A DNA stretch of 64,000 bases. Source: a phage. Location: the sequence record NC_129898.1, one strand, 5' to 3'. The notes beneath the pieces were generated by a model, which had not been told where the DNA came from, did no database searches, and was given only the letters and a program-made list of their open reading frames with translations. Of this stretch, positions 4,824-31,561 are shown piece after piece. The translations under genes and the position numbers were made by a program. The number at the start of each line of letters is the position of its first letter. Position 1 is the stretch's first letter.

Positions 4824-5786
4824 TCAGCAACCACAACTTCCGTAGTGCTTAACCCGTTCTATAACCTCCGCTTGCTTACCTTTATTGTAAGGACGGGAGT
4901 TTGGACTGGACAGATACCCGGATACACGTCTAATCACACTGATCGTTCCCTCTTCATGGTTTCCACACTCTGGGCATACAAAGCCTTTAGCTGTTGCACT
5001 GAACTCACCAGAGAATCCACACTTAAGACATTTATCCACAGGCTGGTTAATACCAAAATACATAATGTGTTTATATCCGAAATCAACAAGAGCTTCCAAA
5101 GCATCTAAGTTGTTTTTCAGATTTGGTGTCTCTATGTACCCAATGTTGCCACCAGAGGAGATCATAGCAAAACCTTCCTCATACTTCCACTTATCAAAAG
5201 GCGAGCTATTGATCCATACTGGCTGATGGAAACTGTTGGTGAGGTATTCATGCTCGTGCTTCAACACTTCTGGGTATTCACGATCCAGACAGGTTGCAGC
5301 TTTATAGCATAAACTCTCAGAAGGTGTGCCGTACAAGCTAAATGCTAGTCCACTTTCCTTCTTGTATCGCTCACAAGCATCTTTCATGTGCTGAAGGATT
5401 CCAAGAGCTAAAGCCTTGTCACCCTCTCTGCCCAAAATCTGACAGGTTTCATACACACCAATATACCCAATACTGATGGAAGCGTACCCGTCATAGAAGA
5501 GTTTATCGATACTCTCTTCAGGATCCAGGCTAGCAAGAGCTCCTTCACACCACATGATAGGGTTATGCCCTGCCTTTGTTCCTTTTAGACGGTTAACTCT
5601 TACAAGGTGAGCCTCATATGCCAAATCCAAATATTCGTCAAGAACTGCAAAGAAATCAACACCTTCCGTTTTAGCTTTTGCCGCAATCATTGGTAGGTTA
5701 AGGCTAACAACACCCAAGTTGAATCTGCCAAGGTATTTCTCCTCGCCTGTTACAGGGTCGCTATATTTCGATAAGAAACTTCTACA
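4824..5786 (-). CDS. nrdD: anaerobic ribonucleotide reductase, exon 2 (C-terminal part)
   Basis: Begins 'CRSFLS'; C-terminal zinc ribbon CLKC...CPEC and glycyl-radical motif 'RVSGYL'; in frame with exon 1 after removing 5787-6548. Confidence 0.7.
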   Translation of the reverse strand, partial: CRSFLSKYSDPVTGEEKYLGRFNLGVVSLNLPMIAAKAKTEGVDFFAVLDEYLDLAYEAHLVRVNRLKGTKAGHNPIMWCEGALASLDPEESIDKLFYDGYASISIGYIGVYETCQILGREGDKALALGILQHMKDACERYKKESGLAFSLYGTPSESLCYKAATCLDREYPEVLKHEHEYLTNSFHQPVWINSSPFDKWKYEEGFAMISSGGNIGYIETPNLKNNLDALEALVDFGYKHIMYFGINQPVDKCLKCGFSGEFSATAKGFVCPECGNHEEGTISVIRRVSGYLSSPNSRPYNKGKQAEVIERVKHYGSCGC

Positions 5787-6548
5787 CATTATGTTCAAGG
5801 TGGTTCGCAAGGCCACCCCCGCACCATTACGTGCTGCTGCATGTCCCCATGCAGATCAGACTATATCTTCACACTTAGTGTGTCTACCATTTCGAGTGTC
5901 ATCAGCTTACACCCTACACCGCTACATTCATCACGGTTAGTCGTTAGGCATTTCGTAACAGAACTCGTAATCATAGTTATTAGGTGCACCACGTTTCAGG
6001 ATAGCAGATATTCTTTTTCTATCTATTCCTAAAACATCAGCACAACATCTCAGACTCTTAAAGTGAATAACCACACCAGTTAATTTGTGGGTGGCTTTCA
6101 CCCCGTGACATCTTGTGTAAAAAGCATAACAGTTGTTGTCGTATCCTTCTTGAGTATTGTCTGGGCAAGCTCCCCACTCAAGGTTGTATACGCTGTTATC
6201 TTTCCTGTTGTCACCTTTGTGCTTAACATATGGTAAATTGTCTGGATTTGGTAAAAACGCTTCAGCAACAAGTCTGTGAACCCTTAGGCAAACAGTCTTT
6301 TTGTTCTTGCGTATCCTGACAAGACGGTAACCTGTGTTTATCTCTTCCCACGAATGAATAATTCTTTCATTTTCGTATCGGGTGCAATAAACATTGCCCA
6401 TCTCGTCAATTTCATAACCTTCAAAATCACGAATTTGTTTTCTCATTTCAGGACTCCTCTTAGTCAGGAGTTCTGTTACGTTTAGCACGGGATTGTCCGT
6501 TCTGGAGTTTCCCCGTTTAGATAGATTTTACATGAGCAGTTATAGTTT
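5787..6548 (-). mobile_element. group I intron in nrdD carrying an HNH homing endonuclease ORF
   Basis: Exon 1 ends in U (..AUGGGU) with a complementary guide 'GCUCAU' 11 nt into the insert; 'AAGAUAUAGUCU' resembles the group I core S element; hairpin CUGCAUG-GGGA-CAUGCAG; insert ends in G; splicing joins SMG to CRSFL in frame. Confidence 0.6.
5937..6446 (-). CDS. HNH homing endonuclease (intron-encoded)
   Basis: HNH-type region 'VHRLVAEAF...HKGDNRKDNSVYNLEW'; AAGAGGAG RBS before the ATG at 6446. Confidence 0.75.
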   Translation of the reverse strand: MRKQIRDFEGYEIDEMGNVYCTRYENERIIHSWEEINTGYRLVRIRKNKKTVCLRVHRLVAEAFLPNPDNLPYVKHKGDNRKDNSVYNLEWGACPDNTQEGYDNNCYAFYTRCHGVKATHKLTGVVIHFKSLRCCADVLGIDRKRISAILKRGAPNNYDYEFCYEMPND

Positions 6549-7709
6549 ACCCATGCTTGTTACTTTGCCGTCTGTTGAACCTGTCACTTTACGATTTAGT
6601 GGAACAGAAACAAAGTCAGGATAAATCCGCTCTGCAGAGCATTCTAGAGCCAATCGTTTCAAATCGTAGTTAGGATCCCCAGGGTTCATGTTGACACCCT
6701 CCTCTAAGAAGAACAGCACTTTAGGAAACACAGGGGTGATCCGTTCTTCACCAAGACCCATTTTGTGGACTTTCAAGTAGTTTTTGGTAATCATTCTACC
6801 AAAGACCGAGGTATCCAGTCCTAAACTTAATGTGATGAATGGAGTTTGCCCGTTGACAGAAGTTAACGTATTGATTTGGTAGAGCAAAGTTTGCATACTA
6901 TCAAACACGTCTTTATCTGTCATTTGCATTGCAACAGTCTCAGCATCTGGCAACCAATGCTCCTGACAAAATTTAAGGTTCTTCTCATAGGTTGCTTCAG
7001 CATACTGTGCCAGATAATGATCAATATGGCTCATGGTTTGACCACCATATTGAGCACTAGCTACTGCACTAGAGATTTGGCTAAGGATTGTTGTTGCAAC
7101 CCCTATTGACTTCGGCTTACTGACATGGGCGTTGCCAATGTTGAATCCGTTTTCCAGCATATCCGGATAATTTACCAAACAACAGTTTGTTAACGGACTG
7201 ATCAGGTAGTCAAGATCATGCACATGGATGAAGCCTTTGTTGTGCTCTTCGGAGACACGGTCTGGCAGGATCTGTGTTGATGCAAGATGTTTGCTAAGGA
7301 TGCCTGCAAGCAGGTCACGATGAGTGTGTACATGATTAGTAGGCTTATTTGCGTTTTCTTTTGTAAATTCATCACAAGTACGATCCAAGAAGCCACTAAT
7401 ATCTGCAAGCAGTTTTCCACCTGCCTCTCTGTTATTATCTCTTGTCTGTCTATACTGGATGTATTCTCTGGCTGCACATTTTAAACCCATATCCATAAGA
7501 GCATCTTCAACAAGGATATGGATATTTTTTACAGAGATCGTGCACTGGTCGGTTGGCAGATTGTTGGCAACAACTTCATTAACCGCACAGGCAATCCGGT
7601 AAGCTTCTTCTTCAGTATGTCCAGACTCAAGTAAGGCGGACTCTGCCGCCTTGATCACCTTAATTCCGTTATAAAACTCTTCTCTACCGTCCCGTTTTAC
7701 AACTTTCAC
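6549..7709 (-). CDS. nrdD: anaerobic ribonucleotide reductase, exon 1 (N-terminal part with ATP cone)
   Basis: ATP-cone-like N-terminus (VKRDGREEF...); the track ORF continues 3 codons into the intron before a stop. Confidence 0.7.
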
Positions 7710-30622: not shown

Positions 30623-30697
30623 GCCCTGTTAGCTTAGTGGATAAAGCAGCGGCCTTCTAAGCCGTTGACACTGGTTCGAGTCCAGTACGGGGTGCCA
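30623..30697 (+). tRNA. tRNA-Arg (anticodon TCT)
   Basis: Hand-folded cloverleaf: acceptor GCCCTGT/ACGGGGT, anticodon loop CTTCTAA, T-loop GGTTCGAGTCC, encoded CCA. Confidence 0.75.
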
Positions 30698-30827
30698 AGT
30701 TCTTTTTAATGTAGCTTACTTTAGCAGAGTAAATCTTCGGCAAGTGGCGGTAACCACTTTACCGATACCTCATAGTTAGTGGTGAGAACACTAGCTATTT
30801 TAAAAAGAATTTAAATATTAGTATTTA

Positions 30828-30915
30828 GGTGAGTTAATTCCGTAGGGGTAGCGGGGCAGACTGTAAATCTGTTATCATTGCGATTCGGGTGGTTCGACTC
30901 CATCACTCACCACCA
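30828..30915 (+). tRNA. tRNA-Tyr (anticodon GTA)
   Basis: Acceptor GGTGAGT/ACTCACC, anticodon arm CAGACTGTAAATCTG as in E. coli tRNA-Tyr, long variable arm, encoded CCA. Confidence 0.8.
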
Positions 30916-31029
30916 AATTTATATTTTTAAATGCATAAATCATACAGATAATGGCATTGATATTTATCGTCGTTTATACTAGTCACTAACTGCTCGAAAA
31001 TCAGTGTCATTATCAGTATTGTTTATAAA

Positions 31030-31120
31030 AGAGGGTAGGGAGCAATGGTGCTCAAGCGGTCTTGAAAACCGTCCCGTTGAGGATGACTCGATGATGGTTC
31101 GATTCCATTATCCTCTGCCA
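31030..31120 (+). tRNA. tRNA-Ser (anticodon TGA)
   Basis: Acceptor AGAGGGT/ATCCTCT, anticodon loop CTTGAAA, 20-nt variable arm, T-loop GGTTCGATTCC, encoded CCA. Confidence 0.75.
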
Positions 31121-31218
31121 TATTGTTGACCTTGTAATTAAGCGAAAGCCGGAAGCAGAACCGGATTATCAAATGTTACAGTCGTCATCGCCGACTAGCC
31201 ACATGGTCAACATATTGC

Positions 31219-31315
31219 GCTAGGTAAGCCCTTTGGCAAGGGCGAGGATTTTTAATCCTGAAAATAGACGAGGTAGTCGTTGAATACATAGATGGTTCGA
31301 TTCCATCACCTAGCA
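31219..31315 (+). tRNA. tRNA-Lys-like (anticodon TTT) with atypically long variable region
   Basis: Acceptor GCTAGGT/ACCTAGC and anticodon arm GAGGA-TTTTTAA-TCCTG are canonical, but about 30 nt separate the anticodon stem from the T arm and CCA is not fully encoded. Confidence 0.4.
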
Positions 31316-31321
31316 CCTTTT

Positions 31322-31397
31322 GCTGATGTAGCACAATTGGCAGTGCAATTGATTTGTAATCAATAGGTTGCAGGTTCAAGTCCTGCCATCAGCACCA
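31322..31397 (+). tRNA. tRNA-Thr (anticodon TGT)
   Basis: Acceptor GCTGATG/CATCAGC, anticodon arm ATTGA-TTTGTAA-TCAAT, T-loop GGTTCAAGTCC, encoded CCA. Confidence 0.85.
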
Positions 31398-31398
31398 T

Positions 31399-31473
31399 GG
31401 CCCTGTAGCTGGAAGGTTCAAGCAAGCGACTCATAATCGCCAGACGGTGGTTCAATTCCACCCAGGGCCACCA
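31399..31473 (+). tRNA. tRNA-Met or tRNA-Ile2 (anticodon CAT)
   Basis: Acceptor GGCCCTG/CAGGGCC, anticodon loop CTCATAA, T-loop GGTTCAATTCC, encoded CCA. Confidence 0.75.
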
Positions 31474-31484
31474 AATTATAAATA

Positions 31485-31561
31485 CTCCGCGTAGCTCAGC
31501 TTGGTAGAGCGCCTGATTTGGGATCAGGAGGTCGAGTGTTCGAATCACTCCGTGGAGACCA
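31485..31561 (+). tRNA. tRNA-Pro (anticodon TGG)
   Basis: Acceptor CTCCGCG/CGTGGAG, anticodon arm CCTGA-TTTGGGA-TCAGG, T-loop GTGTTCGAATCAC, encoded CCA. Confidence 0.8.

Follow-up and report, generated by a model that had tools for sequence, protein, structure and literature searches.

The introns of the phage T4 td, nrdB and nrdD genes are self-splicing, and the nrdD intron is mobile as well (PMC2988022). Among the ribonucleotide reductase (RNR) genes of phages, nrdD is the one most often split (PMC3653736), and spliced nrdD introns have been shown in the gut jumbo phages referred to as Jug phages (PMC12880540). The paper on phage rV5 mentions introns only in the terminase gene, and a literature search found no paper on the Vequintavirus nrdD intron itself. 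The locus considered here lies in 64,000 nucleotides (nt) of DNA (sequence record NC_129898.1; hereafter the window, meaning this whole stretch) from an rV5-like (Vequintavirus) coliphage in which nrdD is interrupted by an insert of 762 nt. On the minus strand, 6548..5787 is very probably a structurally intact phage group I intron of the IA2 type that is spliced from the nrdD mRNA and carries a mobile HNH endonuclease in the loop of helix P6a. In kind, such an element is already known and is ordinary. GenBank holds copies that are 99.9% identical to the window intron, one of which is labelled 'HNH homing endonuclease, Phage intron', and the orthologues from phages phi92 and ECGD1 are annotated as spliced.

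The nrdD region of the window is 99.2% identical to that of Escherichia phage EPFV3-03/2025 and approximately 95–98% identical to that of many further relatives. The gene order on the minus strand is nrdB, glutaredoxin, nrdD and nrdG. The nrdD gene is divided as follows:

7709..6549, minus strand: nrdD exon 1, 1161 nt or 387 codons, encoding the ATP-cone and the N-terminal half of NrdD; colinear with rV5 gp108; 3' end AGC AUG GGU
6548..5787, minus strand: the insert, an IA2-like group I intron of 762 nt; 5' start AAACUAUAACU, 3' end AUAAUG
5786..4824, minus strand: nrdD exon 2, 963 nt including the stop, 320 codons, encoding the finger-loop cysteine, glycyl-radical domain and Zn ribbon; 5' start UGU AGA AGU UUC

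Excision of the 762 nt joins TSMG to CRSFLS in frame and gives a NrdD protein of 707 amino acids (aa), the predicted joined-exon sequence at the splice junction being AGCAUGGGU-UGUAGAAGU. The joined protein is colinear with the uninterrupted gp108 of rV5 and identical to it at 695 of 707 positions. In the DNA alignment to rV5, the match runs to 6549 and restarts at exon 2, with the break at the same nucleotide. There is no room for this boundary to slide: at neither end of the intron does the outermost base match the exon base beside it. The Pfam NRDD profile is also cleanly divided, at position 263/263, with positions 1–263 and the ATP-cone in exon 1. A first-pass annotation of the window had proposed that removal of 5787–6548 would join exons of 1161 and 963 nt in frame, and had named alignment to an intron-less nrdD homologue as a check; the uninterrupted, colinear rV5 gene returns identical boundaries. 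Between the window and rV5, the exons differ at 105 nt but at only 12 aa; both have open frames and are under strong purifying selection.

The same annotation had named SMG/CRSFL as a conserved NrdD motif, and the motif is real. The junction aligns to SPMG|CRSFLS of T4 NrdD, where the cysteine is residue 290 when counted along the alignment and, from the T4 NrdD structure, is presumably the finger-loop cysteine with the thiyl radical. The Met-Gly codons with which the intron guide sequence pairs therefore belong to the enzyme's most conserved motif. Phage introns usually sit at the most conserved motifs of their host genes. In NrdD, the finger loop contains a conserved Met as well as the critical cysteine, which is itself highly conserved (PMC4493059).

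The insert has a complete and intact group I core. A P1 helix with a U·G wobble, the P3–P8 and P4–P6 domains, a P3/P7 pseudoknot, J8/7 and a terminal G were all identified. The helices were placed by hand on the window sequence, and two sources support them. The first is a permissive Rfam scan, which matched RF00028 at 5837..6071 (32.9 bits; E = 2.4e-6 on the region and 1.3e-4 window-wide) and placed P7, the P3 3' strand, P8, J8/7 and P9 of the 3' core convincingly. The second is an unguided RNAalifold consensus of five cores from four lineages, either lacking an open reading frame (ORF) or trimmed of it, which recovered P1, P3, P4, P5, P6, P6a, P7.1, P7.2, P9, P9.1 and P9.2 with compensatory changes in 26 of 67 pairs. 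The Rfam placement of P1/P2 inside the ORF was rejected as an artefact, the true 5' part lying upstream of the ORF. The E-values of the match and the exact colinearity of the excision with the intron-less allele exceed what chance would give. The features of the window copy are:

6556..6549, minus strand: P1 5' strand, the last 8 nt of exon 1, GCAUGGGU; the final U makes the U·G wobble
6545..6541, minus strand: candidate P10 strand CUAUA, which can pair with the exon 2 start UGUAG
6537..6530, minus strand: internal guide sequence and P1 3' strand, GCUCAUGU, intron nt 12–19
6525..6485, minus strand: 5' core as a whole, from the P3 5' strand to the P6 5' strand
6525..6520, minus strand: P3 5' strand UCUAUC, then J3/4 UAA (RNAalifold)
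6516..6511 and 6492..6487, minus strand: P4, ACGGGG/UCCCGU (RNAalifold)
6506..6496, minus strand: P5, UCC/GGA (RNAalifold)
6486..6485 and 5949..5948, minus strand: P6, GC/GC (RNAalifold)
6480..6468, minus strand: P6a 5' strand CGUAACAGAACUC, pairing with 5966..5954
5966..5954, minus strand: P6a 3' strand GAGUUCUGUUACG, within the 3' end of the ORF and followed by the P6 3' strand
5942..5859, minus strand: 3' catalytic core as a whole, from the P7 5' strand to the P7 3' strand
5942..5938, minus strand: P7 5' strand GACUA, P7 being GACUA/UAGUC (Rfam alignment)
5937..5918, minus strand: P7.1 (RNAalifold, covariation)
5914..5894, minus strand: P7.2 (RNAalifold)
5888..5883, minus strand: P3 3' strand GGUAGA (Rfam alignment, RNAalifold)
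5882..5870, minus strand: P8, CACAC-UAA-GUGUG (Rfam alignment)
5869..5859, minus strand: J8/7 and P7 3' strand, AAGAUAUAGUC (Rfam alignment)
5854..5837, minus strand: P9, CUGCAUG-GGGA-CAUGCAG (Rfam alignment, RNAalifold)
5834..5821, minus strand: P9.1 (RNAalifold)
5817..5799, minus strand: P9.2, GGUGG...CCACC (RNAalifold), after which the 3' tail runs to the terminal G

Several elements of this core had been proposed beforehand from the letters alone: an exon ending in U with a complementary guide GCUCAU 11 nt into the insert, a sequence close to the group I S element, a perfect CUGCAUG-GGGA-CAUGCAG hairpin and a terminal G. Each was located where it had been placed. The guide GCUCAU occupies intron nt 12–17 (6537..6532) and the final exon U pairs with G12. 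At 5869..5858, AAGAUAUAGUCU has every letter of the Rfam group I consensus. The intron ends in the G at 5787, fixed directly before exon 2 by the rV5 alignment. P6a is a perfect 13-bp duplex that closes the ORF-bearing loop, and the equivalent duplex differs in sequence in phages pinkbiff, F97 and others. The IA2-type label is based on two features, namely the presence of P7.1 and P7.2, both of which covary, between P7 and the P3 3' strand and the sequence kinship to T4-type introns, the core being 72–74% identical to those of the T-even nrdD introns.

Inserts at the identical codon boundary were found in other phages. The phi92 insert (279 nt) lacks an ORF and is annotated as a 'spliced variant', and that of ECGD1 (290 nt) lies within a joined coding sequence (CDS). 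Further examples come from VEcB (770 nt), the Felix-O1-like phage pinkbiff (742 nt) and Vibrio phage F97 (819 nt). A scan of the viral contigs in IMG/VR for the pattern ATGGGT-N8-16-GCTCAT-N-TAAAA returned at least 120 loci, at least 75 of which have a downstream J8/7 element. From viral contigs and phage genomes, a family sample of at least 54 distinct introns was assembled with the 3' ends set by NrdD homology (contigs L075, L093, L034 and L017 are examples). It includes ORF-less copies of 192–355 nt at the same site. For most members, the host NrdD is approximately 25–46% identical to the window protein by tblastn.

P1, P3 and P7.1 covary across these same-site introns from diverse phages. 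The scan pattern left the base after GCUCAU unconstrained, and in 50 of 54 introns this base forms a pair with exon position -7 (C:G 26, G:C 20, U:A 3, U:G 1). The long-range P3 helix, which spans the ORF, is 94.4% paired across the 54 as compared to 72% with shuffled partners, a value that 0 of 2000 shuffles reached; sliding the helix by one base reduces the pairing to 52%, and compensatory pair types occur at every P3 position. P7.1 is 99.4% paired versus 78% when shuffled (again 0 of 2000), with compensatory changes, and 51% paired when the register is one base off. Hairpins of 5 bp or more were found directly next to J8/7 (P8) in 93% of the introns and after P7 (P9) in 100%, as compared to 50% and 74% at control positions.

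The first-pass annotation had also assigned an HNH homing endonuclease gene to the insert, an assignment that database matches now uphold. The gene and the hairpin that precedes it are:

6471..6453, minus strand: ribosome binding site (RBS) hairpin ACUCCU-GACUAAG-AGGAGU; the ORF has its Shine-Dalgarno sequence in the 3' strand; dG -12.4 kcal/mol, z = -3.3
6446..5937, minus strand: intron ORF for an I-HmuI-like HNH endonuclease of 169 aa with a NUMOD-like C-terminal module; own ATG, with AGGAG upstream

The ORF matches I-HmuI (PDB: 1U3E) over its whole length (E = 6e-8, aa 3–166 against 4–172) and PHROG 59 'HNH endonuclease' with E = 4.5e-32. The HNH motif HKGDNRKDNSVYNLEW is found at aa 76–91 with H..N..N intact, placing the protein in the I-HmuI-like group both by its catalytic motif and by family homology. 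The stop codon overlaps the P7 5' strand. In nearly all family members that have an ORF, its end either overlaps the P7 5' strand or lies no more than approximately 10 nt away, and thus the same loop is used. About half of the family ORFs are related to the window HNH (30–91% identity); those tested from the remainder encode GIY-YIG enzymes, and one of these shares the NUMOD-like module of the window HNH. Of the HNH ORF, the final codons survive in ECGD1 and nothing in phi92 or the viral contig L060, as would fit the familiar cycle in which endonuclease genes are gained and lost.

The 5' strand of the RBS hairpin overlaps the last 4 nt, at the outer end, of the 13-bp P6a. Since these 4 nt are common to both, the full P6a and the hairpin are mutually exclusive. 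RBS-sequestering hairpins have been described for the T4 intron endonucleases (PMC2988022), and by analogy the window hairpin may regulate translation of the endonuclease. The phi92-type introns retain the hairpin in the absence of the ORF, in the altered form CUCCC/GGGGG that includes a compensatory inner pair.

The insert is a polymorphism of presence and absence, being found in only 17 of the 297 phage records that match the nrdD region. The intron is 99.9% identical in five phages whose nrdD regions are approximately 1–4% different from that of the window; the spliced nrdD of phage JEP1 is 5.6% different. Compared to the intron-less rV5, the window has 12 differences within the first 30 nt of exon 2 (+0 to +29; 5786..5757) against a background of approximately 1.5 per 30 nt. 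Only one of the 12 changes an amino acid (TGTAGAAGTTTCTTATCGAAATAT vs. TGCCGGAGTTTTCTTAGCAAATAC) and the rest are synonymous. The spliced-exon sequence at the junction is TGTAGAAGTTTC in the window and ATGGGT|TGC in rV5. Compared to the intron-containing JEP1, the window has zero differences from -30 to +89 and the surrounding exon diverges normally. FV3 was left out of the comparison downstream of the site as it has a different, indel-containing exon 2 allele. The first 14 nt of exon 2 (TGTAGAAGTTTCTT) are identical in the intron-containing phi92-like phages, whose NrdD is otherwise approximately 64–69% identical. Flanking-exon co-conversion is a recognised hallmark of homing (PMC2988022), and the patchy distribution in the Vequintavirus group together with the co-conversion tract would indicate recent homing. 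The synonymous changes in exon 2 perhaps confer immunity of the occupied site to the endonuclease.

In FV3, JEP1 and others, a second insert of approximately 800 nt with another HNH gene follows nrdD codon 287 (FV3, L002 1203–2000; JEP1, L003 1203–1999). The corresponding site in the window, 6849/6850, is empty. The second insert of FV3 and JEP1 gave no Rfam group I match at E <= 0.001, and it may be either a divergent intron or a free-standing endonuclease.

Taken as a mechanism, the intron would be transcribed as part of the nrdD mRNA. The guide GCUCAUGU would pair with the last eight exon bases GCAUGGGU, which comprise the Met-Gly codons, to form P1 with the U·G at the splice site, and the P3–P9 core, with its P3/P7 pseudoknot and J8/7, would fold around P1. 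An external guanosine would then attack the 5' splice site, the terminal G at 5787 would dock, and the exons would be ligated to give SMG-CRSFL and the full-length NrdD. The 169-aa HNH endonuclease, encoded in the P6a loop and so outside the catalytic core, may nick or cut the intron-less nrdD of co-infecting relatives, after which repair would copy the intron and a few dozen bases of flanking exon into the cut allele. The splicing step is predicted from structure and homology, as are the activity and target of the endonuclease.

Several observations weigh against this interpretation. At the Rfam gathering threshold, no intron match was found in the window, and the window copy scores below the RF00028 curated threshold of 50 bits. 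However, the ORF-less orthologues at the identical site pass the RF00028 gathering score (phi92, 70.6 bits; ECGD1, 70.4 bits; L060, 70.5 bits) and ORF-containing copies all score 33–39 bits. For this reason, the low score of the window copy is most likely due to the 510-nt ORF in P6a and not to a defective core. L060 is particularly close, with a NrdD exon 2 that is 97.8% identical to that of the window and a core that is approximately 91% identical. The Rfam group I model was one of the checks originally proposed; the window copy scores below its threshold and the ORF-less orthologues above it. In the window copy, 3 nt separate the candidate P10 from P1, and in many relatives the two are adjacent. 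P7 (GACUA/UAGUC) is invariant across the family and covariation is therefore uninformative on it. The shuffle control for the length of the P6a duplex is weak, and indeed uninformative, because AT-rich sequence yields long chance duplexes. All 54 family introns end in G|UGY, a conservation that is partly circular as a terminal G was required when the metagenomic 3' ends were defined. Finally, the ORF falls below the Pfam cut-offs for both HNH_3 (20.1 bits, cut-off 24.8) and I-HmuI_NUMOD-like (18.3 bits, cut-off 27). Set against these points, the core, the covariation, the intron-less rV5 allele and the ORF-less orthologues all agree with the original proposal that nrdD is probably interrupted by a group I intron.

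One alternative is that the gene is split without splicing, such that the insert stays in the RNA and NrdD is translated as two polypeptides which then assemble, as reported for NrdA of Aeromonas phage Aeh1, whose gene is split by the mobE endonuclease gene. Many GenBank records do annotate two separate nrdD CDSs, and functional unspliced split RNR genes are documented in phages (PMC3653736; PMC7344957). A GTG in frame with exon 2 is also present 30 nt upstream of it, at 5816. However, this GTG, the only in-frame start near exon 2, is inside the hairpin P9.2 and lacks a convincing Shine-Dalgarno sequence. The locus also departs from the Aeh1 nrdA/mobE type in that a ribozyme core flanks the ORF. 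That a complete group I core is kept by compensatory substitutions across dozens of lineages is unexplained if the RNA never folded and spliced, and the ORF-less copies of the family persist with an intact core while serving no endonuclease function. A split gene without splicing is thus very improbable at this locus.

It is similarly far-fetched that the intron is dead, that is, that the ribozyme or its context has decayed and the insert inactivates nrdD as a tolerated pseudogene. As a class III RNR, NrdD is not needed for phage growth in air. The P10 offset and the sub-threshold Rfam score of the window copy point in the same direction. Against this, every core helix is intact in the window copy, its core is close to that of an ORF-less copy scoring 70.5 bits, both exon frames are open with few amino acid changes relative to rV5, and five other phages have the same intron in nearly identical form. 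It is scarcely credible that the insert is an intein, or a free-standing endonuclease gene lying between gene halves with no RNA-level element. Inteins and free-standing HNH genes are common in phage RNR genes (PMC3653736), but the exon 1 frame meets a stop after two codons of the insert (AAA CUA UAA) so that the insert cannot be translated as an intein in frame with the host protein, the ORF has its own Shine-Dalgarno sequence and ATG, and the non-coding flanks, approximately 250 nt in all, covary and fit the group I model.

With a spliced group I intron as the preferred reading, those Vequintavirus records that show two 'NrdD' fragments with a 'hypothetical protein' or 'winged helix' gene between them would describe one spliced gene and a homing endonuclease. 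Such cases inflate the counts of split genes in phage genomes. The element itself would be a textbook selfish intron, inserted at the most conserved spot of an enzyme with its guide on the Met-Gly codons beside the radical cysteine and recently spread among related coliphages. It opens no new question.

Two further observations were made in passing. Approximately two dozen 'Campylobacter phage' records in GenBank (MG065639–MG065690; host Campylobacter jejuni) are 94–97% identical to this nrdD region, and their host labels look questionable. Elsewhere in the window, a tRNA cluster at 30623..31558 on the plus strand holds at least six genes (Rfam RF00005), with a weak tRNA-Sec-like match at 31030..31116.

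Among known systems, the introns of phi92 (NC_023693) and ECGD1 (KU522583) share with the window intron the insertion point ATGGGT|...G|TGT and the guide. Their aligned core is 86% identical to that of the window and both pass RF00028. They differ in having lost the endonuclease gene, hence 279 and 290 nt as compared to 762 nt, and in residing in a host NrdD that is only 64–69% identical to that of the window. VEcB, a relative of both, keeps an ORF that is 91% identical to the window ORF.

The closest described endonuclease is I-HmuI from the group I intron of the Bacillus phage SPO1 DNA polymerase gene (PDB: 1U3E). The two proteins are colinear (174 aa vs. 169 aa in the window), both have the HNH (H..N..N) motif and a NUMOD-like C-terminal DNA-binding module, and both are encoded in a phage group I intron. 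The sequence identity is low and the host gene and target are different. I-HmuI is a nicking endonuclease that cuts one strand, a mode of action that the window enzyme may share.

The ORFs of the T4 td and nrdB introns, encoding I-TevI and I-TevIII, are looped out of a P6 extension. Like the window intron, these introns are of the IA2 type and interrupt a nucleotide metabolism gene at a catalytically critical, conserved codon, and short stretches of the window 3' core are approximately 93% identical to td introns. In both cases, the ORF is preceded by a hairpin that sequesters its RBS (T4: PMC2988022). The T4 introns differ in their genes and guides and in the promoter arrangement of the T4 endonucleases, for which a promoter scan of the window, with nothing above chance, offered no counterpart.

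The T4 sunY (nrdD) intron self-splices. Its T-even relatives in phages U5 and F2 occupy the same gene as the window intron and have the same P7.1/P7.2 core, with the 72–74% identity noted above extending from the guide to P9 (U5, L010 183–414; F2, L009 approximately 1400–1620; window 6537..5837). The guide GCUCAU is identical to that of the window. In contrast, the T-even intron is inserted approximately 110 codons upstream of the window site at the exon hexamer AUGAGU rather than AUGGGU, and its ORF is found 3' of the core, not in P6a. In T4 this ORF encodes the GIY-YIG endonuclease I-TevII (PMC2988022), as compared to an HNH enzyme in the window. One ribozyme lineage thus seems to occupy two P1-compatible nrdD sites.

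From these comparisons, a broader proposal can be put forward tentatively, although it is more doubtful than not. The window intron might belong to a large nrdD intron lineage that is fixed on the Gly|Cys boundary of the finger loop and that has repeatedly exchanged its passenger gene, either I-HmuI-like HNH or GIY-YIG, with some of these sharing a NUMOD-like module. The ribozyme would be a sibling of the T4 sunY intron and, since the guide is identical, one core would have moved between the AUGAGU and AUGGGU sites, with reverse splicing or capture by a new endonuclease among the conceivable routes. The Gly|Cys-site lineage has apparently not been described as such, and its breadth and the guide that it has in common with the T4 intron are mildly interesting.

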